Assembly (NCBI GenBank): GCA_964482105.1
Contig: CAYZWA010000001.1
Location: 18,806-42,991 of the forward strand
DNA: 24,186 bases
Origin: an uncultured Candidatus Saccharibacteria bacterium
Lineage (GTDB): Bacteria; Patescibacteriota; Minisyncoccia; Phycocordibacterales; Phycocordibacteraceae
Reading direction: 5' to 3'
The translations under genes and the position numbers were made by a program. Under the pieces are notes generated by a model, which saw only the letters and a program-made list of their open reading frames with translations, was not told the DNA's origin and ran no database searches. Position 1 is the stretch's first letter. Each line of letters starts with the position of its first letter. Positions 2,349-24,186 of this stretch are shown one piece after another.

Positions 2349-3469
2349 CCATCGTATTCATCACCGATTCCCTTGAGGTGACCAGCGGCTGGGGCCGCTA
2401 CACGGCCGACCTGAAGGGTGCCCTGGAGCGGGCGGGGCACACGGTACGGGTCATCGAGGGGGTCATGCCGCGCGGCTACTTCTCGAACCCCTTTTTCCTG
2501 CTCCACCTCCTCGGCGACGTGTTCCGCATGCGGCGATTGCTGCGCGCGTACCGGCCGGATATCGTGCATGTGACGGCAGAGCCGTACCTGCTCGCGGTAC
2601 CGCTGCTCGCGCTCACGCACACGCCCGTCGTGCTTACCGTGCACGGCACCTACGCGTATCTGCCGGCTGCTGCGCCGCATCTGCTGCAGCCGCTCTACCG
2701 CGCCCTCTTCGCCCGCGCGCTCGCGCATGTGCGCGGCGTGATCGCGGTGAGCGCGTATACCAAGCGCTATTTCTTACAGCAGGCAGAGGCGGCCGGCATC
2801 CCGCTTCCGGCCGCGGTCCGGGTCATCCATAACGGTATCGAGGTCGCTCAGTATCCGTTTGTACGCGCGCCCGCGACACCTGCGACCAAGGTCGTCATCA
2901 CCGTCGGGACGGTCAAGGCGCGCAAGGGGATCGTCGAGGCCGTTCGCGCGCTCGGCGCGTACCAGGCGCGCTCGGCGACGCCGTTCGTGTACCACGTCAT
3001 CGGGCGCAACGCCCCGGCAGCCGACTACGCGCAGCTGCTCCAGGAGGAGATACGCGCCCAGCATCTCGACGGCAAGGTAGTGTTCCTCGGGAAGGTCTCG
3101 GCAGAGCAGCTGGAAGCAGAGTACGCGCGCGCCGACCTCTTCCTGCTCCTGGCGCGCGTGAAGCGAGAGACGCGATTCGAGGGGTTCGGTCTGGTGTGCC
3201 TCGAGGCTAACGCGCACGGCGTGCCGGCGATCGTCTCTGCCGAGGGCGGCTCTGCAGAGGCGATTGCGGACGGGGGGAGCGGGTTCGTGGTCGACCCGGA
3301 CGACCCGATAGCGGTCGCGGGGCGTATCAGCCAGGTGCTCGACGACGAGACGCTCGATCGTCGCGCGGTACGGCAGTGGGCCGAGGCGCACGACATTGCG
3401 CGCGTCGTGCAAGAGGTCATCGCCCTGTATCAGTCGGTCGCCGTGCCCCCAGGCTTGGTGCACGCGTAG
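2345..3469 (+). CDS. Glycosyltransferase family 4 (PimA-like)
   Basis: Real start is MTIVFITDS at ATG 2345 (ATGA overlap with the previous stop). Motifs HGT, VIHNGI, TVGTVKARKG and FEGFGLVCLEANAHGVP. This is the C-terminal 374 aa of the 915-aa ORF in the track. Confidence 0.88.
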   Translation: MTIVFITDSLEVTSGWGRYTADLKGALERAGHTVRVIEGVMPRGYFSNPFFLLHLLGDVFRMRRLLRAYRPDIVHVTAEPYLLAVPLLALTHTPVVLTVHGTYAYLPAAAPHLLQPLYRALFARALAHVRGVIAVSAYTKRYFLQQAEAAGIPLPAAVRVIHNGIEVAQYPFVRAPATPATKVVITVGTVKARKGIVEAVRALGAYQARSATPFVYHVIGRNAPAADYAQLLQEEIRAQHLDGKVVFLGKVSAEQLEAEYARADLFLLLARVKRETRFEGFGLVCLEANAHGVPAIVSAEGGSAEAIADGGSGFVVDPDDPIAVAGRISQVLDDETLDRRAVRQWAEAHDIARVVQEVIALYQSVAVPPGLVHA

Positions 3470-5630: not shown

Positions 5631-6476
5631 ATGTACAAACAGATATATGTCGCAGCGACGTTGCTGCTCGTGGCCGGCGTCGTGCCGGGCGTCGCGAGTG
5701 CCGCCATGCTCGGTGTGCAGGAACAGGCACACGTGGACGCAGAGGTACGAGGCGCAGGTCTCTCTGCCGGGGCGAGCGCTACCGAGGAGGCAGGTGAGAG
5801 CGCGAGCACGTCGCGCGCAGAAGCAGGTGATCAGGTGAGTGCGACCGGTACCCAGGCGCGTATCGAGGCGCAGACCCGCGCTCAGACGCAGATGGAGGCA
5901 CACGCGGTCATGCAAGCACAGGAGCGCATGCAGGCCGAGGCGCATCTCCGGTTCGCGCTTGAGGGCTCCACGACGCCGGCGACGACGCTCGTCGGACTCC
6001 AGCAGTCGATCCAGATGCGCGCACAGGAGCTCAACCAGGAAGAGGCACGTGCTTCGACCTCGGAACAGGCCGTCCTGAAGAATGAGAATCCGGTCCGGCT
6101 CGCGGTCCACGCGCTTCTCGCATCGCGTGATCTCTTGGACGGCATCGGCCCGCAGGTGTCGGTGATCGCGCAGCAGATGAACGCGTCGATCGCGACAACG
6201 TCTGTCGCCGAGGCGCAGATACGGTCGCGCGGTTTCTGGACGCGGCTCCTCTTCGGCGGTGACACGAAGGCAGCGAACGACATCAGTACCGCGGTCGCCC
6301 AGAACCAGGCGCATATAGAGGCGCTCACACAGCTCTTGAACCAGGCGAATCTCTCGACAGATCTCAAGACGACGCTCCATGCGCAGATTACCGCGCTTGG
6401 TGCCGCGCAGGCCAATCTCCAGGCTCTCGCGCAGAATGAGCAACGCGCGTGGGGTCTCTTCAGCTGGCGGTTCTAG
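5631..6476 (+). CDS. Hypothetical exported protein, Ala/Gln-rich coiled coil
   Basis: Signal-peptide-like N-terminus (MYKQIYVAATLLLVAGVVPGVASA), low-complexity A/E/Q region, helical C-terminal half ending WGLFSWRF; transcribed divergently from the flippase. Confidence 0.8.
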   Translation: MYKQIYVAATLLLVAGVVPGVASAAMLGVQEQAHVDAEVRGAGLSAGASATEEAGESASTSRAEAGDQVSATGTQARIEAQTRAQTQMEAHAVMQAQERMQAEAHLRFALEGSTTPATTLVGLQQSIQMRAQELNQEEARASTSEQAVLKNENPVRLAVHALLASRDLLDGIGPQVSVIAQQMNASIATTSVAEAQIRSRGFWTRLLFGGDTKAANDISTAVAQNQAHIEALTQLLNQANLSTDLKTTLHAQITALGAAQANLQALAQNEQRAWGLFSWRF

Positions 6477-8637: not shown

Positions 8638-9725
8638 CGATAACTGAGCGCATACCGCTCGCGCCGCTGACCACATTCGGGGTCGGCGGCGCGGCGCGTT
8701 TCTTCGCGGCGGCCGAGACTGCCGAGGACGTGTGCGCCGCCATCCGCTTTGCCGACGAGCGTGCGTTGCCGCTCACCATCCTCGGCGGCGGGTCGAACGT
8801 CCTCATCGCCGACGAGGGGATCGACGGCGTCGTGCTCGCCCCGCGTATGGGCGGTATCGCGTATGAGGCGCATGACGACGGGGTGGTCGAGGCGGTTGCC
8901 GGTGCCGGCGTCTTGTGGGACGACCTCGTGCGCGAGACGCTCGCGCGCGGTCTCGCGGGGCTTGAGTGTCTCTCAGGCGTGCCGGGGACCGTCGGCGGCG
9001 CGGTTGTCGCGAACATCGGCGCCTACGGCGCGCAGGCGAGCGACACGCTCGTGCGTGTCGAGGCGGTCGAACGCGCGTCCTGTGCGCGCCGCGCGTTCAC
9101 GCCGGACGAGTGCGCGTTCTCGTACCACGACAGCCGGTTTGCTCGTGAGCCAGGCCGGTTCGTCATCATACGCGCGGCCTTCGCGCTTCGCGCCGGTGCT
9201 GCCGCGTTGCCGCGCTACGCGGACTACCGCGCGAACCTCGCCGACGAGCTCCGCGCGCGCGACCGCGCCGCGACGCCCGCGAACGTCCGCGACCTCGTCC
9301 TCGACATCCGCGAACGCAAGGGTACGCTCGCCATGCCCGGTCGCAGCGCGTACCGGTGTGCCGGGTCATTCTTCCACATGCCGCAGGTCTCGCACGCGGC
9401 ATACGAGCGCGTGCGCACGGCCGCGCGCGCGCTCGACGCGGCGAAGGAGGAGCGCTTGCGCCCGTGGTCGTGGGAACAGCCGGACGGGACCGTCCGTCTC
9501 GCGCCGGGTTTCCTGCTCGAGTACACGCCGTTTACGAAAGGGTACGTGCGCGGCGCGGTCGGCATCTCGCCCAAGCACACGCTCTCGATCATTGCGCTCG
9601 ATGGCGCGCGCGCGCACGAGATAGCCGCGCTCGCGCACGACATGCAGCACGCGGTCGAGCGCACGTTCGGCGTCGTGCTCGTGCGCGAGGTCGAGTACCT
9701 CGGCGCATTCGCACACGACGCGTGA
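8634..9725 (+). CDS. murB: UDP-N-acetylenolpyruvoylglucosamine reductase (MurB family), divergent active site
   Basis: LAPLTTFGVGGAA, ILGGGSNVLIAD, GLECLSGVPGTVGGAVVANIGAYG, AGSFF, ISPKH and LVREV motifs. Confidence 0.9.
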   Translation: MTITERIPLAPLTTFGVGGAARFFAAAETAEDVCAAIRFADERALPLTILGGGSNVLIADEGIDGVVLAPRMGGIAYEAHDDGVVEAVAGAGVLWDDLVRETLARGLAGLECLSGVPGTVGGAVVANIGAYGAQASDTLVRVEAVERASCARRAFTPDECAFSYHDSRFAREPGRFVIIRAAFALRAGAAALPRYADYRANLADELRARDRAATPANVRDLVLDIRERKGTLAMPGRSAYRCAGSFFHMPQVSHAAYERVRTAARALDAAKEERLRPWSWEQPDGTVRLAPGFLLEYTPFTKGYVRGAVGISPKHTLSIIALDGARAHEIAALAHDMQHAVERTFGVVLVREVEYLGAFAHDA

Positions 9726-9752
9726 TGCGAACGTGTTCGCGCACGCGTCCAC

Positions 9753-9761
9753 TTATCCACA
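9753..9761 (+). promoter_or_regulatory. Perfect DnaA-box sequence TTATCCACA
   Basis: Exact match to the bacterial consensus in the murB to small-ORF spacer; whether it functions is unknown. Confidence 0.45.
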
Positions 9762-9801
9762 CATGAAAAGTTTTTCATACACGCAAAAAGTTTTTCCGCG
9801 C

Positions 9802-9839
9802 GATAATACGAGCAGGAACATTCGTGTGAGAATGTTCCT
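9802..9839 (+). promoter_or_regulatory. -10-like GATAAT followed by a 10-bp 5'-leader hairpin
   Basis: GATAAT at 9802-9807; stem AGGAACATTC (9814-9823) / GAATGTTCCT (9830-9839) begins at the expected transcription start. Confidence 0.45.
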
Positions 9840-9884
9840 TGCACGAATGGGTCGATCTATCAGTAACCACTAACGCACAACATC

Positions 9885-10031
9885 ATGGCCACGAAGAAGC
9901 GTAAGGCGACAAAGAAGGTCGCGAAGAAGAAAGTCGCGAAGAAGACGACGCATCGCCGCACGGTGCGGAAGGTCGCGAAGAAGACCGCTCGCAAGACCAC
10001 CCGCAAGACCGCGCGCAAGCATTCCCGCTAG
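9885..10031 (+). CDS. 48-aa Lys/Arg-rich histone-H1-like protein
   Basis: Translated by hand: MATKKRKATKKVAKKKVAKKTTHRRTVRKVAKKTARKTTRKTARKHSR. 24 of 48 residues are K or R, no D or E. Codons are mostly GC3-biased, and the ORF is flanked by a promoter-like element and a hairpin. Below the ORF-track length cutoff. Confidence 0.8.
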   Translation: MATKKRKATKKVAKKKVAKKTTHRRTVRKVAKKTARKTTRKTARKHSR

Positions 10032-10045
10032 ACGGCACGTGCGTT

Positions 10046-10091
10046 TGTCGAAGCAGCCGGCCCCGCAGACGCGGGGCCGGCTGCTTCGACA
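10046..10091. terminator. Perfect 21-bp inverted repeat with 4-nt loop and no U-tract
   Basis: TGTCGAAGCAGCCGGCCCCGC-agac-GCGGGGCCGGCTGCTTCGACA, 14 nt after the small-ORF stop. Confidence 0.6.
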
Positions 10092-10114
10092 TCCGTGAGT
10101 GCGCGTGCTATAGT
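10086..10114 (+). promoter_or_regulatory. secA promoter: TCGACA-17 nt-TATAGT with TG extension
   Basis: -35-like TCGACA at 10086-10091, exact 17-nt spacer, TGcTATAGT at 10106-10114, ATG at 10124. Confidence 0.65.
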
Positions 10115-10123
10115 GTGGCGACC

Positions 10124-12649
10124 ATGTTCAATTTCTCCTCGTTTTTCTCCAAGAATCAGTCGGCAGCCTTCCTGAAGCGGGCACAGCCGGTCGTGGCCGC
10201 CGTCGACGCGCTTACCGACGAGCTCCGGGCGCTCTCTGACGCCGATCTGCGCGCCCGGATCGCCGAGATACGCGCTCGTGCTGCCGAGGCGCATGAGACG
10301 CCAGAGGCCGACATACCACAGGTATTCGCTCTCGTACGCGAGGCGTCGCGCCGCACGCTCCGGCAGCCGCACTTTACCGTGCAGCTCGAGGGCGGTCTCG
10401 CGCTCCTCGAGGGCAAGATCGCCGAGATGCGCACCGGCGAGGGCAAGACGCTCGTCGCGACGCTGCCGGCGACCTTCCACGCGCTTGCCGGGAAGGGTGT
10501 GCATGTCGTCACGGTCAACGATTACCTGGCGCGTCGCGACGCCACCTGGATGGGCCAGGTGTACGATTTTCTCGGTCTCTCGGTCGGCGTCGTGACGAGC
10601 GCCGGCGCGTTCCGCTATGACGCGTCGCACGTCACGTCTGCAGAAGATCGTGAGCGCGACGAAGAAGGATCATTCAAGGTCTTTTATGAGTATCTCCGGC
10701 CGGCGACGAAACGCGAGGCCTATGCCGCCGACATCACCTACGTCACCAATAACGAGCTCGGCTTCGACTACCTGCGCGACAACACCGCGTATGACCCGTC
10801 GCAGCTCGTCCAGCGCGACCCGTACTTCGCCATCGTCGACGAGGTCGACTCCGTGCTTATTGACGAGGCGCGAACGCCGCTCATCATCTCGGGGCCGTCC
10901 GGCGACGCGGAAGATCTCTATCAGAAGTTCGCAGCCATCGTGCGCACCCTCAAAGCGGACGAGCACTATACGGTCGATGAGAAGCAGAAGGCGATCCAGC
11001 TGACCGACGCGGGTATCCGTGCCGCAGAACGCGCGCTCGGCATCGAGAATCTCTACACGGAGGGCGGCATCAAGCTCGCGCATCATCTCGAGACGGCGGT
11101 GCGCGCCGAGGCCTTGTTCCATAAAGATAAGGAGTATGTCGTGAAGGACAACGACATCGTCATCGTCGACGAATTCACCGGCCGTCTGCAGCCTGGCCGG
11201 CGATGGTCGGAAGGGCTTCATCAGGCGGTCGAGGCGAAGGAGGGCGTCCCGGTACAGGCCGAGACGCGCACGTACGCGACGGTCACGTTCCAGAACCTGT
11301 TCCGCATGTATCCGCGCAAGGCCGGCATGACCGGCACCGCGCTCTCGTCCGAAGAGGAGTTTTATACGGTCTACGAGCTCGAGGTCGTCGTCGTGCCGAC
11401 GAACAATCCAGTCGCGCGCAAGGACTACGACGACCTCATCTTCCAGACAGCAGCGGGCAAGTATCGTGCGGTCGCGCGTGCGGTGCAAGAGCGGCAAGAC
11501 AAAGGCCAGCCGGTCCTGGTCGGCACCGTCTCGATCGAGGACAACGAGATCGTGAGCCGCTATCTCGCCGACGCGCACGTGCGCCACGAGGTGCTGAACG
11601 CGAAGAATCACGAGCGTGAAGGCGAGATTATCGCAGAGGCGGGCAAGTACGGCCGCGTGACCGTCGCGACGAACCTTGCCGGGCGTGGCGTCGATATCAA
11701 GCTCGGCGGCGCGGCAGCGTCGCGCGAGGAGCGCGAGCGGGTGCTCGCGGCCGGAGGCCTCGCGGTCATCGGTACCGAGCGGCACGATGCGCGCCGCATC
11801 GATAATCAGCTGCGCGGCCGCTCGGGCCGTCAGGGCGACCCGGGCGAGACGCGCTTCTACGTCTCACTCGAGGACAAGCTCATGCGCGTCTTTGCTTCGT
11901 CGACATTGCAGAAGGTCATGGGCGGCTTCGGCATACCCGAAGACGAGCCGATCGAGAGTTCGATGATCACCCGGTCGCTCGAGACAGCGCAAGAGCGCAT
12001 CGAAGGGTTCAATTTCGACGCGCGCAAGCAGGTACTCGCGTATGACGATGTCATGAACACCCAGCGCCTCTCCGTCTACGCGCGGCGTCGCGCGGCACTT
12101 GCCGGTACTGACGCTGAAGTCGAGTCGATCGCCGAGACGCTCTTCGCGGGCGACGACGCGGCGCTTGCCGCGTTTTCGGCGAAGAAGCAGGAGCTCGGTG
12201 ACGCGTTCGCGCGCAACCTCCGCTTCCTGTTGCTTCAGGTGACCGACCTGTTCTGGCTTGAGCACCTCGAGACCATGGAGTACCTCCGCCGGTCCGTGTC
12301 GCTCCGCGCGTACGGCCAGCGCGACCCGCTCATCGAGTATCGTCGCGAGGGGCTCACGCGCTTCCGCGCGCTTGAGGCGAATATCATAGCGGCGCTCGCG
12401 GATGCGCTTCCGCGCATGGCTGCTGCCACGCCCGTCCAGGTGACGAAGGAAGAGGAGCAGATGCACGCTGCGGCGCTCGCCGCAGGCGAGGGGGGCGCCG
12501 CAGGCCCCGCGCCCGCTCGCAAGGCGCACACGCATGGCCGCAACGAGATCGTCACGATAGAGAAGGATGGCGAGACGCGCTCGCTCAAGTTCAAGAAAGC
12601 GGAGCCGCTCCTTGCCGAGGGTTGGCAGATCGTGAGCCAAGCGCACTAA
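10124..12649 (+). CDS. secA: Preprotein translocase ATPase SecA
   Basis: IAEMRTGEGKT Walker A, VTVNDYLARRD, IVDEVDSVLIDEARTPLIISG, ATNLAGRGVDI, IDNQLRGRSGRQGDPG and YGQRDPLIEY motifs. ATG 10124 is preferred over GTG 10115. Confidence 0.97.
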   Translation: MFNFSSFFSKNQSAAFLKRAQPVVAAVDALTDELRALSDADLRARIAEIRARAAEAHETPEADIPQVFALVREASRRTLRQPHFTVQLEGGLALLEGKIAEMRTGEGKTLVATLPATFHALAGKGVHVVTVNDYLARRDATWMGQVYDFLGLSVGVVTSAGAFRYDASHVTSAEDRERDEEGSFKVFYEYLRPATKREAYAADITYVTNNELGFDYLRDNTAYDPSQLVQRDPYFAIVDEVDSVLIDEARTPLIISGPSGDAEDLYQKFAAIVRTLKADEHYTVDEKQKAIQLTDAGIRAAERALGIENLYTEGGIKLAHHLETAVRAEALFHKDKEYVVKDNDIVIVDEFTGRLQPGRRWSEGLHQAVEAKEGVPVQAETRTYATVTFQNLFRMYPRKAGMTGTALSSEEEFYTVYELEVVVVPTNNPVARKDYDDLIFQTAAGKYRAVARAVQERQDKGQPVLVGTVSIEDNEIVSRYLADAHVRHEVLNAKNHEREGEIIAEAGKYGRVTVATNLAGRGVDIKLGGAAASREERERVLAAGGLAVIGTERHDARRIDNQLRGRSGRQGDPGETRFYVSLEDKLMRVFASSTLQKVMGGFGIPEDEPIESSMITRSLETAQERIEGFNFDARKQVLAYDDVMNTQRLSVYARRRAALAGTDAEVESIAETLFAGDDAALAAFSAKKQELGDAFARNLRFLLLQVTDLFWLEHLETMEYLRRSVSLRAYGQRDPLIEYRREGLTRFRALEANIIAALADALPRMAAATPVQVTKEEEQMHAAALAAGEGGAAGPAPARKAHTHGRNEIVTIEKDGETRSLKFKKAEPLLAEGWQIVSQAH

Positions 12650-13712: not shown

Positions 13713-14732
13713 ATGGAAGAAGTCCTTCTCGACGGGCAGAGATACGTATCGTCGAAGCGAGCCGCGAAAATAACCGGCTATGCGAAAGACTACGTTGGGC
13801 AACTTTGCCGAGAAGGCAAGGTTCCTGCGCAGCTTGTCGGGCGTGGCTGGTTCGTTCTCGAATCGGCCATACGAGAACACAGATTCGGTACGTCTACGTC
13901 CGTGCACAGTGCAGACGCTGCCTCCGCAGCTGTTGTCGAGCACTCGGCCGCGTCTGAACGAGCGCGGGCAGAGAAAGAGGAGGAGCCGGCCGTCGAGGCG
14001 CATCCGGGAGACGACATCCACGCGTCTGCGCGCGCGGCGGCACTTGCTGCTGCGGCTACGCGTCTTCAGTCTCAGGTTCCGGCCCCAGAAAGAGAACCCG
14101 ACAGGGCACACGGCTACATAGCTCCGGAGGCGATTGCCGCGGAAGACAGAGCCATACGGATGCTCGGACACACCCTGGATGCGCCGACATACGAACCGGT
14201 TACCGCCGAACCGTTGCCGACAATCAATCGAATCAACCGACTCGCGGCGGTCACTGAGCTGGGGCAGGCTTCGCCAGAACAGGCGCCTGAGCTGCCGGAC
14301 GACCGGGCACCTCATGCCGAGGAGGCGCGCGTCGCGTTGCACGCGGAGGAAGAAGGGGAGTTGTCATCAGAGGTCGAAGAAGATCCTCCGGTACCCGTGC
14401 CGGTTCATCGGGCATACGAGTCCGACCATCAGGCGATTGATACGGGCGGGGAGGAGCTCAAACTCAAAAGTGACGTCAGCTATGCGCGTGCGGGGGAGAC
14501 ACGTACGACTACGGCAGTGAGGGCAACGCCGCTCGCTGCGCCGCGGCAGGCACGCCCCGCTCCACCCCGCTCGGCACGCAGGTCGCGCGTGTCTGCGTGG
14601 GTGAGCGTGGTCGTCGTCGCGGTTGTTGCACTCGGAGTTGTCACGATCGGCATGGGGGCAGTAACCCTCGGCAAGTATGCGTATCTCGTGAGCGGTTTGA
14701 CCGGTACATTTACGTACGTAAATAGCTACTAG
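13713..14732 (+). CDS. N-terminal HTH (excisionase/HTH_17-like) protein with low-complexity linker and C-terminal TM anchor
   Basis: YVSSKRAAKITGYAKDYVGQLCREGKVPAQLVGRGWFV, then an acidic/Pro/Ala linker, then the hydrophobic segment VSAWVSVVVVAVVALGVVTIGMGAV preceded by a basic patch (RSARRSR). Start taken at MEEVLL. Confidence 0.8.
   Translation: MEEVLLDGQRYVSSKRAAKITGYAKDYVGQLCREGKVPAQLVGRGWFVLESAIREHRFGTSTSVHSADAASAAVVEHSAASERARAEKEEEPAVEAHPGDDIHASARAAALAAAATRLQSQVPAPEREPDRAHGYIAPEAIAAEDRAIRMLGHTLDAPTYEPVTAEPLPTINRINRLAAVTELGQASPEQAPELPDDRAPHAEEARVALHAEEEGELSSEVEEDPPVPVPVHRAYESDHQAIDTGGEELKLKSDVSYARAGETRTTTAVRATPLAAPRQARPAPPRSARRSRVSAWVSVVVVAVVALGVVTIGMGAVTLGKYAYLVSGLTGTFTYVNSY
14708..14723. 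repeat. Perfect 16-bp palindrome ATTTACGTACGTAAAT
   Basis: Self-complementary; lies in the last codons of the HTH gene. Confidence 0.7.
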
Positions 14733-14963: not shown

Positions 14964-16124
14964 ATGAACTCTCCTCTACTCGATACCCATCTTGCAGCCC
15001 CTGCAACCGAGACGCACGTACAATCCGAACTGCGTGCGGTAGCAATCGCTGCCTGCGTGCTTGTCTTGGGCGCGTCTGCCGCATACTCTCCCGCGCTTCC
15101 GCAGGTTGCGGGTCGTGTTGCTACCGTGGCACATCGCGTGGCGACCGGATTCGCGGATACGTTCGGCGCATCGACCGATGTGCGCGGACGCATTGCCCAA
15201 GCGCTCGTGCCGCGTCAGGAGCGCTTGCTGCCGGCATACCAGACAGCGGACCAGACCACGCTATTCGCAGACGCGCAGGCGCATATCGCGGCAGCAACCG
15301 CCGGTTATACCGCACTGCGTGCGTATGCGACCGCCGGCGACGTGGCACAGCCATTCGCTGCCGTGGCGCAATCCGCGCGCACGCGCTCCCCTTCGGCCGA
15401 TATCGGAGGCGCATACGTCGCGTTCGGGCGCTCTGTTATCGCCGTATCGGATTGGTGCATTCACGCTGACATATCGCTCGCGTACCTGATTGCGCGCGCG
15501 GGGTTCGCCGGCGTGTCGACAGCGAACAGATTCGCGCGGTCGGCGGCCGCCGGTGCGCGGATCGCATACGCGGGCGTGTCTGACGCCCTGCGCGGGAGCG
15601 CGCTCTTGTCGGCGGGCGCGCATGAATTCGCTCAGGGCAAGCGCGCCGCGGCGGCTGCGTTCGCGGCAGTCGCTTCGGCGGCAAGCACGCTCTCTGTGCC
15701 CGTCGCGCACCAGGTACACCGCGAGCGATTCCCAAGCCCGATGCCGGACATCCTGCCGGTGCTCTCTGGTGCCGTAGATGCGCTAGGCGAAGGGGTCATC
15801 GCTATAGCACACGCAGCGATTAACGCCGACGTATCGCTTGCGTACGGTATCGCGGCTGCTGCTCCGGCAAGCGCACGGGCCGTGTTCGGTGCGGAGTATG
15901 CCACCGCGTACCGGTTCGTCGCGGTCACTGATACGGTGTCGACCGGGTACGGTCTCGCGGTCGAGCGTGCCGGCCGGTTCGCGTACGAAGGGGTAGCCGG
16001 TGTCGGTGCGTTTACTACGCAGACTGCTGCCGGGGCGTACAGTGCATACCGGTCGATCCTTGATGCGGGTACGTTGCCCGCGGCACACGTCGGCGTACCG
16101 GGACGTACCGCGAAGGGGAGATGA
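14964..16124 (+). CDS. Ala-rich membrane-anchored protein with an internal 29-aa repeat; first gene of the F1-like operon
   Basis: One N-terminal hydrophobic segment (AVAIAACVLVLGASAAY) and two GAxxAxGxxVIAxxxxxIxADxSLAYxIA repeats; ATGA overlap with the next gene. GTG 14925 is an alternative start. Confidence 0.7.
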   Translation: MNSPLLDTHLAAPATETHVQSELRAVAIAACVLVLGASAAYSPALPQVAGRVATVAHRVATGFADTFGASTDVRGRIAQALVPRQERLLPAYQTADQTTLFADAQAHIAAATAGYTALRAYATAGDVAQPFAAVAQSARTRSPSADIGGAYVAFGRSVIAVSDWCIHADISLAYLIARAGFAGVSTANRFARSAAAGARIAYAGVSDALRGSALLSAGAHEFAQGKRAAAAAFAAVASAASTLSVPVAHQVHRERFPSPMPDILPVLSGAVDALGEGVIAIAHAAINADVSLAYGIAAAAPASARAVFGAEYATAYRFVAVTDTVSTGYGLAVERAGRFAYEGVAGVGAFTTQTAAGAYSAYRSILDAGTLPAAHVGVPGRTAKGR

Positions 16125-16957
16125 GACTGCGTATGCGGCGTCTCGTTACCGTGCACGGTCTGGCGTACGCGCTCGTCACAGCGCTGCTGTTCGTCGTGAA
16201 CGTTAGTAGCGTCGCACACGCGCAACAGGCGAGTGACGGGCTGATCGCACGCACGTACGCGATTATCGGCGCACAGCCGGTCTCAGGCGATCTTGTCTCG
16301 CTCGACAAGGCGGCCCAGACGCTGCACCTCTCGGCCACCACGAGCGATGAAGCGATATTCGGCGTAGTCGTGACCGATCCGGTCATCGTCCTGCGCTCCG
16401 CGAGCACGAGCGTGCCGGTCGTAACGTCCGGCGAGGCGCAGGTAAATGTCACGGCGCGCGGCGGCGCCATCGCGCCAGGCGATTTCATCACGACCTCCCC
16501 TGTGCCTGGGAAGGGACAGCGCGCGACGAGTACCGATGCTTTCGTCGTCGGCATGGCGCTCGCCTCGTTCCCTTCGACGACGACGCCTGTGGCCGCGACG
16601 ACAACCGGGAGCATCCCGGTACTGCTCCAGATAGGGCCGTACTCCGGCCATCCTCCGGCGGCCGCCTCGGGCATCTCTAACCAATCCGCACCCACCTCAG
16701 TGGCGGCTCAGACGCCCAAGATCGGTGTGCCGGTGTTCCTGAAGTACCTCATCGCCGCTGTAGTCGCGATCGGCTCGATCGTGGTCGCGTTCGTGAACTT
16801 CGGTGCGAGCGTACGGAACAGCGTCATCTCGATCGGGCGCAATCCGCTCGCACGATCTTCCATCCAATCCATGGCGGTCCTGAACACGGTTCTCATCGTG
16901 GTCGTAAGCGCCGGGGGGATCTTCATCGGGTTCGTCATCCTCTTCTTACCCTCCTAG
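16121..16957 (+). CDS. Signal peptide + exported beta-rich domain + C-terminal ATP-synthase-c-like helical hairpin lacking the acidic residue
   Basis: Signal peptide ending AHA; beta-rich domain at about aa 35-172; P/A/S linker; two TM helices joined by a GRNP loop; sits in the atpE position directly before the atpF-like gene. Confidence 0.75.
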   Translation: MRLRMRRLVTVHGLAYALVTALLFVVNVSSVAHAQQASDGLIARTYAIIGAQPVSGDLVSLDKAAQTLHLSATTSDEAIFGVVVTDPVIVLRSASTSVPVVTSGEAQVNVTARGGAIAPGDFITTSPVPGKGQRATSTDAFVVGMALASFPSTTTPVAATTTGSIPVLLQIGPYSGHPPAAASGISNQSAPTSVAAQTPKIGVPVFLKYLIAAVVAIGSIVVAFVNFGASVRNSVISIGRNPLARSSIQSMAVLNTVLIVVVSAGGIFIGFVILFLPS

Positions 16958-16967
16958 CTACCCTCGT

Positions 16968-17750
16968 ATGACTAACGCATCTCTCGGCTCTGTCTTCTCT
17001 GTCCCGGTCGGCGTGACCCTTGCCGTTCTCCTCGGATTCGTCTTCCTCGCGCTCGCGGTACTCGTCGTCGTGGTCATCCAGTTCGGTACGCGGTTACGCT
17101 ACCTGGCTTCGCCGGTCTACGACCGGATCGTCAAAGAGGCCGAAGAGAAAGCGCGGCAGATCGTGAACGTCGCAGAGGAACAGGCACGCGTCGCGCTCGA
17201 GAACGCGAAGGCCGCGGCGGTCAAAGCTTCCTCGGATCAGGCGCAGATGGATGAGCAGATGCGCCAGGAACAGAACAGGCATTTGGAAGAGATCACCAAA
17301 CGTGCCGAAGAGCTCCTCAACAAGCAAGCGCTCTCGATCACGCAGTTGTCTGAGGCGATGGCGAGCGCATTCGGCAAGCAGATGCGTGCCGCAGAGACGG
17401 TACTCGAACGTGAGACGTCCGAGATGCAAGGCGTTATCGCGAGCGAGACGAAGCGCGTGCAAGAGACGTTCTCGAACATGGCAGCGAAGGTCGACGACGA
17501 CTACGCGCAGCTCGTCAACGAGACCGGTAAGAAACTGGAAGCGGAGCTCAACGGGGAAGTACAGGCTGCGCGCGAAGCGGTCAAGGCCTATCGCGAAGAG
17601 CGCATGGCACTCCTCAACAAGGAGATCGTCAGGATCGTCGAAGATACGGCACGGATCGCACTGCATACGGTGCTCTCGCTCGAGCAGCATCGTGACATCG
17701 TCATCGCGGCGCTCGAGGAAGCGAAGCAGCAGAACGTCTTTGCGAAGTAG
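16968..17750 (+). CDS. atpF: Subunit-b-like peripheral stalk, elongated (260 aa)
   Basis: Single N-terminal TM, long EEKARQIV...A-rich coiled coil, b-like C-terminus IVRIVEDTARIALHTVLSLEQHRDIV; directly precedes the delta gene. Confidence 0.65.
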   Translation: MTNASLGSVFSVPVGVTLAVLLGFVFLALAVLVVVVIQFGTRLRYLASPVYDRIVKEAEEKARQIVNVAEEQARVALENAKAAAVKASSDQAQMDEQMRQEQNRHLEEITKRAEELLNKQALSITQLSEAMASAFGKQMRAAETVLERETSEMQGVIASETKRVQETFSNMAAKVDDDYAQLVNETGKKLEAELNGEVQAAREAVKAYREERMALLNKEIVRIVEDTARIALHTVLSLEQHRDIVIAALEEAKQQNVFAK

Positions 17751-17753
17751 CGT

Positions 17754-18293
17754 ATGGATGATGCCCGCCTCGCTACCTTCGTCGAACACACCTACAGTCG
17801 TGCCGCGTTCGCGTACCGTATCGGCGTGCTGAAAGAGTTCCTCGAGTTCGCCTTCTTCACCGCGCACTATGAGCGGATTACGGGCGAGGCCATCGACGCA
17901 TTCGGGAAAGACGGTCGCCCGGTCGCGGACATCGCCTTCCTGCGGTCGCTCCCGGCGCCGTTCTTCGACGGGCTTACGCAGGCATCGTTCTCTGCGGAGT
18001 TGGATCGGGTCGCAGACGCCGTACGTGCGCTCCCGACGCTCTCACTCACGGTCCCGGTCATGCTCGATGACGAGGGTCGGGACGCGGTAGGTGCGTGGGT
18101 GCGGAAAGAGGTCGGTCGTGACGTCATGCTCGACCTCTCGATCGATCCGGATATCGCGGCGGGGTGCCAGGTGGTATGGCACGACCGGCTGTACGACTTC
18201 AGCCTCGACCACTATCTCGGAGCCAGTCGTGCCGCCTTTGATGAGCGTGTGCGTGCGGCCCTGTCGCCCGCGGAGCCTGCTGAACGCCCATGA
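17754..18293 (+). CDS. atpH: Delta/OSCP-like subunit, divergent N-terminus
   Basis: C-terminal LSIDPDIAAGCQVVWHDRLYDFSL matches the delta/OSCP pattern (vDpslIgG.vv..gd...D.S); located between the b-like gene and alpha. Confidence 0.7.
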   Translation: MDDARLATFVEHTYSRAAFAYRIGVLKEFLEFAFFTAHYERITGEAIDAFGKDGRPVADIAFLRSLPAPFFDGLTQASFSAELDRVADAVRALPTLSLTVPVMLDDEGRDAVGAWVRKEVGRDVMLDLSIDPDIAAGCQVVWHDRLYDFSLDHYLGASRAAFDERVRAALSPAEPAERP

Positions 18294-19761
18294 ACACACC
18301 GGATGGATCGGCGGCGCGCGAAGGAGAAGTCGGCTTTGTCACGCGGGCGAAGGGGTACCTCTTCTCGCTGGAGGGTCTGCCTTCGGCGCGCGTTAACACC
18401 ATCATCGAGAATGCGAAAGGGCAGCGCGCGCTCGTCACTGCGTTGCGCGAAGATAGTGTCGAAGCGCTCCTGCTCGGCCGCGGCACTCTTGAGGCAGGCG
18501 AGCGCTTCATGCTCTCAGGCGCGCGTCTCATGTACCCGTCAGGCGAGGCGCTCCTCGGGCGTGTCGTGAATGCGCTCGGCGAGCCGATCGATGACGGCGC
18601 GCCATTTGCAGAGAGGAAGACCCCGCTTATTCTCGAGGCGGACGCGCCGACCATGAGCGCCCGTGCGCCGATGACCGTGCCGCTTCAGACGGGCATGCCC
18701 GCCGTCGACATCCTTATGCCGATCGCCAAGGGACAGCGTCAGCTCGTCGTCGGGCCGACCTCGAGCGGCAAGAACTTCTTCCTGGAGAGCGTGGTCGCGA
18801 ATCAGGCTGCGACCGAGGTCATCTGTATCTACGCGTTCATCGGCCGGCCAGCCAGTTACATCGAGGATGCGGTCGCGCGGATCTCGCATGACGGGGACAA
18901 GAACCAGCACGTCATCATCATCGCGTCATTCTCGGATGAGCCCGCGTCGATGGTGTACCTGACACCGCTCGTGGCCGTCGAGCTCGCCGAGTACTTCTCG
19001 CTCTCCGGCAAGGACGTCATCGTCGTGCTCGACGACCTCGGCGCCCATGCGAAGTATCTGCGTGAGATCGCGCTTCTGTCCGGAGAGATACCAGGCCGCG
19101 AGTCTTATCCGGGTGACCTGTTCTACCGACAGGCGAGCATGCTCGAGCGGGCCGGCCGCTTCAACAAGACGCTCGGGAACGGCAGCATCACGATCCTGCC
19201 GGTCTTGGAGACGGACATCGAGGACGTGTCGAACCTCGTATCGACCAATCTCGTGTCCGCGACAGACGGCCACCTCTTCTTCTCGCCGCTCCTGCACGCC
19301 GAGGGGGTCTTTCCGGCGATGATCCCCGCGCAGTCAGTGACCCGCGTCGGCCGCAGGACGCAGAGCACGCTCGCGACTCAGCTCTCCATACGCGCCCAAG
19401 CGCTTCTGGCAGAACAGGAGCGCCAGCAGCGGTACAGCCAATTCGGCACGCAGCTGTCGCAAAAGACGCGCCGGCTGATCACGCAAGGACAGGTGATGCG
19501 CGCGCTCCTCAATCAGGAACAGATGACCGCACTGTCGCCCGAGGCGCAGATCGTCCTGCTTGCGCTCGTATTCACCGGGCTCTTCGACGGCAAGGATGCC
19601 GCATTCGCGGCTAAAAATCGTCGCGCGCTCGTCGAAGCGGTCGCGCGGGCGCCGCAGAACGCCGCCGTCGCACCCGTGGTCGAGAGCGCGCAGCGGGGTA
19701 CCATCTCGCTCGAGCAGTTCCTGAAGAAGCTCTCCGGGGCCGTCCCGTATTTCGCTGCCGT

Positions 19762-19771
<10 letters not shown>
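18290..19771 (+). CDS. atpA: F1-ATPase alpha-like subunit (divergent)
   Basis: LLGRVVNALGEPID, PIAKGQRQLVVGPTSSGKN, DDLGAHAKYLREIALL, PGRESYPGDLFY, LLER-like MLERAG, TDGHLFF and SVTRVG motifs. Confidence 0.92.
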
Positions 19772-22296
<2,525 letters not shown>

Positions 22297-22297
<1 letters not shown>

Positions 22298-22314
22298 TCT
22301 CGTGTACACGAGAT
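22297..22314. promoter_or_regulatory. Perfect 18-bp palindrome ATCTCGTGTACACGAGAT (copy 2 of the TCTCGT-RTAY-ACGAGA motif)
   Basis: Self-complementary; starts at the last base of the epsilon stop codon. Confidence 0.7.
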
Positions 22315-22990
22315 ATGTATTACATACAACAAATATTGAAATCTCTGATAGACGAGCTTTTTGATACACTGATACCCATTGGCGAAGGTACGCACGAGGA
22401 ATCGATGAGATCAGTCTGGGTAACTTGGCATATTTTCTTGTAGTTTTGTCATTTTAAGACGGTTAATTAATCATTGCGCTTTTGCGGACGGTGATAATTG
22501 ATACACCGACCGTCTCGTGCCGTGTGTACATTTATAGGGGTGGACGTGCAGTGTTCAGAACCTGGCCTGTGAGCGATTGGCAAGACGAACAATGATAGCA
22601 AGTAATAATATAGATATTTCGTCTCATTACAGATCACATGCGGCATGCATGGAGAGGCATTGTTGATGGTCGTTAAGCCGTGATCCATACCATTCTCGCG
22701 GGGATGTTCGGATTTTTATCTGGGAGTGTGCACACACTGCGCTGTAATGCCCAGTAAGAGCGCTTGCCGCACAAAACAAGAGCATACATCCGTTGCGAGT
22801 AGCGCATTCTTCGTGGTGTGCGCATCGAACCGCGGGTGCGATACGTACATGCGCATACGCATTCTTGAGTCACCATTGATTTATGGTTCAGTGCGAGTTG
22901 TCGTTAGTCGCGCACGCTATCCACACATCATCTCGAGATGCTCCTAGGCGAACACGGAAATACAGATAAAATATAAATAAATCGTCCTAC

Positions 22991-24186
22991 ATGGTACCTC
23001 GCGCACACAGCAAAGATCGACAGATGCTCTCCTCGCGAGATGCAGCGCAAGCTGTCGGGTACACGAGCGACTATGTCTCGCGTCTGTGTCGACACGGCAA
23101 GGTCGATGGCGAGAAGAGGGGCAACGTCTGGTACATTGACATGCGCTCGCTTCGTGTGTTTGTCGAAGAGCAAAAACGTGTCCAAGAAAGTTATCACGAT
23201 CAACTCGCGCAGCAGCGCAAGGACGAGTATCAAGGACCGCGCTCCGTTCCTTCGACGCCAGCACGGAAAGATACGTCGCGCGCGCGTCGGCCACGGATAG
23301 CGTTTGCGGCGGTTGCGGTCGTCGCGGCGCTCCTGCTCGGCGCGGGCATCGCGGCCGGCAACATCCTGCCGAAGCTGTTGACGACGACTGAGGTTTCTCC
23401 AGCCGCCCACTTGAGCGCGCATCGTGTCGCGAGCACGAGCCCGCATATTGCCGCGATTGCGGCGACCCAACCGGGCTTCTCAAGCGCGCTCCTGCGCGCC
23501 GTCTCCGACTCTTTCCAAGCAGTGCAGCAGAGCGTACAGCGCGCCTTCGGTTCGCTCGGCGGCCTGTTCTCACCGGCCTCGACCGCGACCTCGACTTCGC
23601 CCTCAGGCATCACACCTGGAGTCGGGGTGACGCAAGCGACGACGTCTCCTGATACCGCGGTTCTGGCGCGAACGAACCTGTTCGCGGTGCCGGCGGGCGG
23701 CACGCTCGGTATCAATACCGACGTGAACATCCGCAACGGTCTCTCGGTCGGCAGCACGGCGGCCGTGAGCGGGAACGCGAACGTCGGCGGTACGGCGCGG
23801 ATCGGCCGGACACTCTCGGTCGGCGGTGGTGCAGACGTGCTCGGCCTGCTCTCCGCGAGCGGCGGCATCACGACCGGCGGCGCGAACGTGAACGCAGGTA
23901 CCGGCCAGGTCACCGGCGCGAACATCATCAACAAGCTCCACGCTGGTTCGAATATCACGATTACGGGCACGCCGCAGGACCCGATCATCTCGTCGACCGG
24001 CAGCAGTTTCGGTTTCTTCGGGTCGAGCAACAATGGTACGGTTACGAGCGTCACCGGCTCTGGCGGCTCGACCGGCCTCTCGCTCTCCGGCACCATCACC
24101 TCGAGCGGCGCGCTCACGCTCGGCGGGTTGCTGAACATCGGGCATGGCGGTACCGGCACCTCGTCCGCACCCTCGTACGGACAGGT
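22991..24186 (+). CDS. 5' part of a large HTH-TM-fibre surface protein (runs off the window)
   Basis: Open frame from ATG 22991 to the window end, translated by hand: MLSSRDAAQAVGYTSDYVSRLCRHGKV HTH, TM IAFAAVAVVAALLLGAGIAAG, S/T-rich linker, 6-residue Gly/beta repeats, GTVTSVTGSGG...LNIGHGGTG fibre-type repeats. Missing from the ORF track because it has no stop codon in the window. Confidence 0.85.
   Translation, partial: MVPRAHSKDRQMLSSRDAAQAVGYTSDYVSRLCRHGKVDGEKRGNVWYIDMRSLRVFVEEQKRVQESYHDQLAQQRKDEYQGPRSVPSTPARKDTSRARRPRIAFAAVAVVAALLLGAGIAAGNILPKLLTTTEVSPAAHLSAHRVASTSPHIAAIAATQPGFSSALLRAVSDSFQAVQQSVQRAFGSLGGLFSPASTATSTSPSGITPGVGVTQATTSPDTAVLARTNLFAVPAGGTLGINTDVNIRNGLSVGSTAAVSGNANVGGTARIGRTLSVGGGADVLGLLSASGGITTGGANVNAGTGQVTGANIINKLHAGSNITITGTPQDPIISSTGSSFGFFGSSNNGTVTSVTGSGGSTGLSLSGTITSSGALTLGGLLNIGHGGTGTSSAPSYGQ
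23723..23881 (+). repeat. About nine tandem 6-residue beta-strand/Gly peptide repeats
   Basis: VNIRNG LSVGST AAVSGN ANVGGT ARIGRT LSVGGG ADVLGL LSASGG ITTGG. Confidence 0.7.

Follow-up and report, generated by a model that had tools for sequence, protein, structure and literature searches.

A c-subunit-like membrane protein with an exported phage-fibre-type domain in F1-like ATPase operons of Candidate Phyla Radiation bacteria

'Incomplete' or 'minimal' ATP synthases have been recorded in many Candidate Phyla Radiation (CPR) genomes and ascribed to genome incompleteness or gene loss (PMC11738941, PMC10656485). A stretch of 24,186 nucleotides from an uncultured Candidatus Saccharibacteria bacterium (contig CAYZWA010000001.1 of assembly GCA_964482105.1, positions 18,806 to 42,991; hereafter the window) raises a related question: what is a domain of phage-fibre type doing on the membrane subunit of an F-type-like ATPase? 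In the window, whose G+C content is 60-70%, genes for glycosyltransferases and an O-antigen-ligase-like protein, together with murB, secA and obg, precede an F-type-like ATPase cluster. The open reading frame (ORF) that heads this cluster (16121-16957, plus strand) encodes, by translation, a protein of 278 amino acids (aa) that fuses three parts: a signal peptide, an exported beta domain (about 140 aa) and a membrane hairpin that resembles subunit c. An initial annotation, made from the DNA letters alone, had likened the beta domain (16223-16636, aa 35-172) to intramolecular chaperone domains of phage fibres and to phage cement proteins, and had considered it non-catalytic. The reading that we favour, and to which we give an even chance, is that the exported domain serves as a non-enzymatic oligomerisation or docking crown, probably linked to surface fibres, on the outer face of the ring of an F1-like ATPase that does not translocate ions.

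Architecture of the c-like fusion protein

The closest relatives of the 278-aa ORF are encoded in metagenome-assembled genomes of CPR/Patescibacteria, namely Kaiserbacteria, Paceibacterota and 'Minisyncoccota', with Saccharimonadales and WWE3 sequences farther away. A common layout is found in 73 homologues (250-295 aa), each with a signal peptide ending in A-x-A, a beta domain of about 140 aa, a low-complexity linker of variable length, and two hydrophobic helices joined via an invariant G-R-N-P loop. Residues G56, G115, G120, S126 and G130 are invariant in the 54 aligned members, and A34 of the A-x-A site is conserved in at least 90% of them. All of the strings by which the initial annotation had recognised the domain are present in the translation: LIARTY (aa 41-46, with R44 at codon 16250), GDLVSLD (56-62), FGVVVTDP (80-87), PVVTSGEAQVNVT (99-111), GAIAPGDFITTSPVPGKGQRA (115-135), VVGMAL (142-147) and GSIPVLL (163-169). 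Given the 73 homologues and the invariant residues, this pattern does not reflect chance.

Export of the domain is predicted because the N-terminus combines a basic n-region, a hydrophobic core and a cleavage site between AHA and QQ that coincides with the conserved A-x-A. The position of the domain, N-terminal to the first transmembrane helix of the c-like hairpin, would place it on the outer face of the membrane. A whole-chain AlphaFold2 model computed from the family alignment has a mean confidence (pLDDT) of 84.8, with values above 90 in the beta domain, disorder at residues 182-198, and a helix at residues 2-29 in the signal-peptide region in addition to the two hairpin helices (Table 1). 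Modelled alone, the exported domain reaches a pLDDT of 92 and a pTM of 0.86.

Two departures from this layout occur among the relatives. In some of them the c-like frame is far longer at its N-terminus, as in a 623-aa open frame at positions 8846-10714 of locus L017 and a called protein of 460 aa (P0009); these extensions are either true fusions with the upstream membrane protein or artefacts of read-through or start calling. The Saccharimonadales locus L003 (GCA_035545555.1) encodes at 2376-3197 a second protein with an exported domain and a GRNPLA hairpin (273 aa), which the profile matches with E 2e-27. Its gene adjoins that of a 667-aa protein without annotation and lies some 7 kb upstream of the copy in the operon. 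With such a paralogue, rings might be hetero-oligomeric, or the hairpin might have a role outside the ATPase.

Identity of the exported domain

We assign the exported domain, which has a cement-like fold, to the D-x-A-E / Peptidase_G2-like superfamily as a degenerate member that is no longer proteolytic. Its resemblances are detectable only via profiles and fold comparison, and the window protein formally passes no family threshold. Direct scans of the protein against Pfam and NCBIfam gave no match at E≤1, a phmmer search of PDB returned only a spurious LRR match, and tblastn with the domain found no match in 50,697 phage records. No Pfam gathering threshold is reached by any of the 54 c-fused members scanned. 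At E≤1, 24 of these 54 match PF23982 (XM1_gp53_minor_capsid), the best being P0026 with 26.3 bits against a cut-off of 27; four match PF09956 (Phage_cement_2, formerly DUF2190; best E 0.0038), and PF11962 (Peptidase_G2) is not among the 25 listed of the 40 Pfam families matched. Members of the family also match PHROGs families named 'head scaffolding' and 'tail fiber'.

Searched against 1.84 billion representative proteins, a profile restricted to the domain matched 25,677 of them at E≤0.001, of which 12,716 reached E≤1e-10. The strongest matches (E down to 1e-69) are proteins of 500-5400 aa with two to four copies of the domain, and those that carry a name are hypothetical proteins of CPR bacteria (Woesebacteria, Uhrbacteria and 'Patescibacteria group'). 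The module in these giant surface proteins, which belongs to an unnamed family also present in jumbo-phage fibres, aligns with the c-fused domain at an hhalign probability of 99.9% (E 1.5e-33), with I-A-R-T-Y placed on D-L-A-E-x-Y, and both contain the motifs GD, IGVV, G.V.V.V, NG.I..GD.IT.S..PG...KA and IG.AL. Fibre modules lie inside or at the end of their proteins, usually in two or three copies, and keep D, E and R, whereas c-fused proteins have one copy, at the N-terminus, in which these residues are lost. In turn, the fibre-module profile matches residues 685-743 of the phi29 pre-neck appendage protein gp12 (E 6e-5) and residues 1-52 of 3gqh, the gp12 C-terminal fragment, beginning at D-F-A-E-Y-F (E 7e-5). 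The kinship to the Peptidase_G2-type module that had been proposed from the motif layout is therefore borne out, with the fibre module as the intermediate. Two of the eight fibre proteins scanned (P0090 and P0092) pass the Pfam Peptidase_G2 model with 37 bits against a cut-off of 25, and the model covers only the first 55 or so residues of the module. By tblastn, the fibre-type module matches structural proteins of jumbo phages, including Atu_ph07, PA5oct-like phages and Campylobacter phages. The D-x-A-E module has undergone a very large expansion, and occurs in giant proteins of up to about 5400 aa, usually with two or three copies each (P0074-P0222; locus L001, 5758-9891).

The fold points in the same direction. 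In Foldseek searches of PDB, the top matches of the modelled domain are the cement or decoration proteins of Pam3, Borrelia BB1, Sf11, TW1, HFTV1 and XM1 (E 4e-4 to 4e-2, TM-score 0.47-0.64, sequence identity 10-16%). These include entries 8hdt_G (E 4.3e-4), 8pkh, 9ocb (query-normalised TM-score 0.64), 5wk1_K, 8qsy and 7kmx_a, at probabilities of 0.99-1.00. Structures of phi29 gp12 rank below them: 3suc with E 0.012 and a query-normalised TM-score of 0.59, and 3gqh_A with E 0.025, TM-scores of 0.58/0.51 and a root-mean-square deviation (rmsd) of 4.0. The model thus suggests a moderate similarity to the gp12 C-terminal fragment and a better one to cement proteins. The best matches in BFVD are large phage proteins that carry tail fibre, tail protein or pre-neck appendage annotations, with E down to 1.5e-10 and an rmsd of 2.2-3 Å over about 135 residues. 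In their published structures, the cement proteins and gp12 are trimer-forming. The cement-type fold that had been suspected is supported by these matches together with the sub-threshold ones to PF23982 and PF09956. As regards a match to PF11962 or DUF2190, the proposal thus held at the level of profile and fold, and failed at that of Pfam gathering thresholds. Phage cement and decoration proteins (8hdt_G, 8pkh, 9ocb, 5wk1_K, XM1 gp53/PF23982, PF09956, lambda gpD) provide the best solved-structure matches; unlike them, the c-like gene is cellular and sits in a chromosomal operon between secA-obg and the F1-like genes, and its product is tethered to a membrane, with no capsid.

The D-x-A-E motif is present in 237 of 275 fibre copies (from 144 proteins) and in none of 78 c-fused members. 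We aligned 263 fibre copies with 75 c-fused copies and compared their columns. The D of the motif is found in 90% of fibre copies and in no c-fused copy, where G, T, S or A takes its place; likewise the E (91% and 0%) is replaced with R, Q, T or K. The Arg of G-R-V-P falls from 92% to 7%, and the Ser of V-S-T, present in 88% of fibre copies, is mostly V in the c-fused group. Structural positions, among them several Gly, G-D, the Ser of T-x-S, the A of K-A and G-x-A, remain at 92-100% in both groups; the K of K-A is K in 65%, and K or R in 90%, of the c-fused group. Because the conserved D, E, R and S of the fibre module are lost while the structural positions are kept, the comparison indicates that the fold is preserved and that the c-fused domain is non-catalytic, in agreement with the initial annotation.

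The former cleavage site lies about seven residues from the predicted signal-peptidase site. The position of the motif at the mature N-terminus therefore leaves nothing upstream to release, and the mature domain resembles a chaperone domain that has already been released but is still tethered. The C-terminal autochaperone of phi29 gp12 (PF11962, MEROPS G2) belongs to the same superfamily and fold, and the mature N-terminus of the c-fused domain falls where the post-cleavage N-terminus of gp12 lies. In contrast to gp12, the c-fused domain lacks D-x-A-E (it has LIARTY) and the conserved Arg, has no Pfam match, and is located N-terminally, behind a signal peptide and tethered to a membrane hairpin, rather than C-terminal to a beta-helix fibre from which it is released.

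The c-subunit-like membrane hairpin

The family profile matches F-type c subunits in PDB, with A. woodii c2 at E 0.0033 and others more weakly, and Foldseek superimposes the hairpin on c subunits with target-normalised TM-scores of 0.57-0.90 and an rmsd of 1.1-2 Å. An hhalign comparison with six canonical c subunits, whose sequences were entered by hand, gave a probability of 86.5% (E 4.6e-6) over 71 columns, with GRNP placed on ARQP. G239, R240, N241 and P242 are invariant in 54 sequences, and the GRNPLA loop corresponds to the R-(Q/N)-P loop through which F-type c-rings contact gamma/epsilon. The Pfam model ATP-synt_C (PF00137) is matched by only one of 54 members, with 16.4 bits against a cut-off of 24, so that its gathering score is not reached.

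The canonical ion-binding position, 18 residues after the loop proline, is V260 in the window protein. The carboxylates of the c subunits of A. woodii, Spirulina and I. tartaricus align to hydrophobic columns of the family profile, and none of the 54 hairpins, read by eye, has an acidic residue at the canonical position. A polar residue (N, Q, E, D or H) is found five positions before it. Thus the protein has in common with F-type subunit c the two-helix hairpin, the R-(Q/N)-P loop and a gene placed before b-delta-alpha-gamma-beta-epsilon, but it lacks the ion-binding Glu/Asp, the GxGxGxG motif and a subunit a in its operon, and adds a signal peptide, a 140-aa domain and a linker. The label 'rotor', which the initial annotation had given to this subunit, assumes a working F-type ring, though the ring subunit is without a carboxylate and the operon without subunit a.

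An F1-like operon without subunit a

The c-like gene is followed by genes for b, delta, alpha, gamma, beta and epsilon in overlapping reading frames (Table 1). The b-like protein has no match to Pfam ATP-synt_B. Alpha, beta and gamma score below the equivalog thresholds of NCBIfam, and the alternate-F1F0 and Mycoplasma F1-like/gliding-motor models score close behind the F0F1 models. Together with the non-canonical membrane sector, these scores place the complex among predicted F1-like, non-canonical ATPases. The Walker A (GGAGVGKT) and GERIREG motifs of beta are intact. The P-loop of alpha (18290-19771) reads G-P-T-S-S-G-K-N in place of the usual G-D-R-Q-T-G-K-T, and both this and the 90-aa epsilon fit a divergent F1-like head.

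We searched for subunit a and a canonical c in the operons and adjoining genes, in related loci that were retrieved with 15 closer sequences. Neither an ATP-synt_A match, nor a polytopic neighbouring ORF, nor a canonical c was found in the operons of the window, of loci L001 (Parcubacteria) and L003 (Saccharimonadales), or of 17 GTDB loci. The a-less operon is thus shared by about 20 CPR loci that range from Kaiserbacteria-like genomes to Saccharimonadales. Where an a-like gene was sought beside the operon in other classes, there are genes for an arginyl-tRNA synthetase, an integrase, a bactofilin-like protein and similar products instead. The 399-aa protein encoded immediately upstream of the c-like gene was considered as a disguised subunit a, and was ruled out since it has no polytopic profile and no Pfam match.

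The F1-like X0 ATPases of Mycoplasma (MSC_0618/0619; MMOB1660/1670 in M. mobile) and the N-ATPases are comparable systems, on whose models the alpha and beta subunits described here score nearly as well as on genuine F0F1 models. Like the F1-like X0 enzymes, the predicted CPR complex joins an F1-like head to a membrane part that is non-canonical, and its gene context connects it with surface structures; the CPR system is known from its genes. In contrast to the Mycoplasma complexes, the CPR operon has retained genes for gamma, epsilon, delta and b and for a c-like ring subunit, and it belongs to a different phylum.

Fibre genes beside the operon

In the Kaiserbacteria-like clade the gene order is conserved: secA, obg, gatB, a helix-turn-helix (HTH) protein with a transmembrane segment, a membrane protein, the c-like fusion, b-delta-alpha-gamma-beta-epsilon, and a giant fibre. 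The 399-aa membrane protein of the window has no Pfam or NCBIfam match. The stop codon of its gene overlaps the start codon of the c-like gene (ATGA), and therefore the two are probably translationally coupled. Its family is marked by the motif 'AH..I.ADV.LAYGIAAAAP', and in several genomes it has an HTH and a transmembrane segment of its own. An HTH_17 protein with a C-terminal transmembrane segment (13713-14732) is conserved upstream of this gene, and the two genes together look like a split or truncated fibre N-terminus; the similarity of the 399-aa protein to the N-terminus of the fibre in L001 is marginal (E 0.096). In L001 a 1378-aa surface protein takes the upstream position. It combines YadA-head repeats and Ig-like domains with a D-L-A-E-R-Y copy of the domain (profile E 2e-19), which lies in mid-protein and not at the C-terminus.

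A fibre gene is found downstream of epsilon in at least 11 related loci. The fibre that begins at 22991 runs off the window, and could be extended to 676 aa via a related locus (L006). Its homologues are mostly partial proteins, and only one of them (P0228) contains the domain.

Possible functions of the exported domain

In the preferred reading, n copies of the hairpin would form a c-like ring docked to the F1-like ATPase, and this ring would translocate no ions. Cleavage by signal peptidase would free the N-terminus of the beta domain a few residues before the former cleavage motif, and the freed domain would stay tethered to the outer face of the ring by the flexible linker, much like a released chaperone domain. 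The tethered domains could then act as an oligomerisation or docking crown that most probably binds itself or homologous domains in surface fibres that are anchored in the membrane. Hydrolysis of ATP in the F1-like head may thereby be coupled to a structure on the cell surface. The identity of the domain, the loss of its catalytic residues, the hairpin without a carboxylate, the a-less operon with divergent F1-like subunits and the neighbouring genes of the fibre class are observed; the ring under gamma/epsilon, its lack of ion transport, the crown and the probable link of the crown to surface fibres are inferred.

Several points weigh against this reading. In some members an E, D or Q lies about 13 residues beyond the loop proline, and an unconventional ion site is conceivable in these. 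Canonical atpB and atpE genes could be located elsewhere in the carrier genomes. Other CPR bacteria, such as Southlakia epibionticum, have a canonical AtpI-a-c-b-delta operon (PMC10633639 supplement), and therefore the a-less arrangement is a distinct variant and not simply 'the CPR ATP synthase'. The initial annotation had proposed that the domain could grip or template fibres that end in a domain of its kind, and had expected a homologous domain in the neighbouring fibres. This was found in one genome (L001), in mid-protein, and no copy occurs in the recoverable 676 aa of the window's fibre. Across all loci checked, L001 represents the only species in which a second domain-bearing protein lies less than 10 kb from the operon, so that a homologous fibre domain is not a conserved neighbour. 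L001 also has a complete downstream fibre (1169 aa), which is without the domain.

It is possible, if somewhat unlikely, that fibres are not involved at all, and that the domains form a self-contained homo-oligomeric crown, for example of trimers, that sets or stabilises the stoichiometry of the ring or anchors it to the cell wall. The Foldseek relatives, being trimer-forming, fit such a role, as do the retained structural core residues and the fact that domain-bearing fibres are not conserved neighbours. However, genes of the fibre class consistently flank the operon, the upstream one being probably translationally coupled to it, and the linker, being long and flexible, hints at reach and not at a rigid cap.

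A bolder extension, which we regard as unlikely, is an ATP-driven rotary or ratcheting surface machine, in which the F1-like motor would turn a ring without carboxylates and without subunit a, and the exported, fibre-derived domains would pass torque or anchorage to the fibres or pili of an episymbiont. If true, this would be a rotary ATPase with its output on the cell surface, and, after the gliding motor of Mycoplasma mobile, a second and independent case of an F1 motor recruited for surface mechanics.

We consider it improbable that the operon encodes an ordinary ion-translocating ATP synthase, with the 278-aa protein as a decorated c subunit or an AtpI-like ring-assembly factor, with a and perhaps c encoded elsewhere, and with a domain that only stabilises or caps the ring. 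The hairpin fold, the R-N-P loop, the gene position before b-delta-alpha-gamma-beta-epsilon, the intact catalytic motifs of beta, the E, D or Q in the second transmembrane helix of some members, and the canonical operons of other CPR bacteria are all consistent with such an enzyme. Against it, no member has an acidic residue at the canonical position, and the profile places the carboxylate on hydrophobic residues; no polytopic a-like gene was found in or beside the operon in about 20 loci; and alpha, beta and gamma fall below the F0F1 cut-offs.

That the domain is still an autoprotease or chaperone, acting through other residues and released from the hairpin after assembly, would accord with its autoproteolytic superfamily but is very improbable, given that D, E and R are absent across 75-78 members, that the motif lies at the mature N-terminus with nothing upstream to cleave, and that the linker is C-terminal to the domain. 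An artefactual fusion, from a mis-called ORF or a chimeric assembly, is refuted by the same architecture in 73 homologues (250-295 aa) from independent NCBI, JGI, ENA and Logan assemblies, the only uncertainty being the start codon (16121 or 16133).

Literature searches returned no description of such a c-subunit fusion, nor of an a-less F1-like ATPase in CPR bacteria. The operon combines an F1-like ATPase, whose membrane sector is non-canonical, with an inactivated domain of the Peptidase_G2/cement-fold superfamily. It suggests that part of the ATP synthase gap in CPR genomes is a real and conserved alternative, in which a c-like protein with an external domain of phage-fibre type, unable to carry protons in the usual manner, takes the place of the a and c genes. 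It also suggests that a rotary ATPase has been rewired towards work at the cell surface instead of ion pumping. An autoproteolytic chaperone module that is shared with phages has been expanded in CPR surface proteins, and is here inactivated and reused. If the alternative is as described, metabolic reconstructions would be wrong to assign a proton-coupled ATP synthase to these organisms, and the fusion would offer a way to test how ultra-small episymbionts drive or anchor the fibres and pili on their surface.

Other features of the window

Table 1. Features of the c-like gene, the F1-like operon and the flanking genes (positions are those of the window)
Feature	Coordinates	Strand	Details and basis
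Ala-rich membrane protein, 399 aa	14925..16124	+	Upstream of the c-like gene; same position across the clade
Signal peptide (predicted)	16121..16222	+	aa 1-34; RLRMRR n-region, hydrophobic core, cleavage site AHA-QQ
Alternative start ATG	16133	+	Within the signal-peptide stretch of the c-like gene
Exported beta domain	16223..16648	+	aa 35-176; AlphaFold2, profile, hhalign, Foldseek
L-I-A-R-T-Y	16241..16258	+	aa 41-46; aligned to the D-x-A-E-x-Y cleavage motif; D to L, E to R
Pro/Ala/Ser/Thr-rich flexible linker	16649..16726	+	aa 177-202; pLDDT <50 at aa 182-198, gapped alignment columns
c-subunit-like helical hairpin	16727..16954	+	AlphaFold2 helices at aa 203-240 and 242-275; profile, Foldseek, hhalign
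G-R-N-P-L-A cytoplasmic loop (predicted)	16835..16852	+	aa 239-244; invariant; aligned to ARQP/GRQP/SRNP
b-like peripheral-stalk subunit	16968..17750	+	N-terminal membrane anchor and long charged helix; position, synteny
delta (OSCP)-like subunit	17754..18293	+	PF00213, 24.6 bits against a cut-off of 22.3 (weak)
F1-like alpha, divergent	18290..19771	+	PF00006; NCBIfam 370 bits against a cut-off of 554
F1-like gamma	19762..20619	+	PF00231; NCBIfam 64 bits against a cut-off of 194
F1-like beta	20607..22028	+	PF00006; NCBIfam atpD 423 bits against a cut-off of 463
Short epsilon	22025..22297	+	PF02823; 90 aa, beta-sandwich only, without the C-terminal helical domain
Large surface fibre, N-terminal 398 aa	22991..24186	+	HTH, one transmembrane segment, Gly/Thr/Ser-rich repeats; runs off the window

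A perfect palindrome of 18 nucleotides (ATCTCGTGTACACGAGAT, 22297-22314) is found right after the stop codon of epsilon. Between this stop codon and the fibre gene is a non-coding spacer of about 690 bp (22298-22990) with a G+C content of about 45%, compared with 60-70% in the genome. Rfam and tRNA scans of the window, with the spacer included for Rfam, found nothing. Gaps of 300-1200 bp also precede the downstream fibre gene in related loci. Elsewhere in the window, the O-antigen-ligase-like gene and a minus-strand flippase-like gene enclose a 281-aa ORF (5631-6476) with a signal-peptide-like N-terminus and a coiled-coil-looking, Gln/Ala-rich region.

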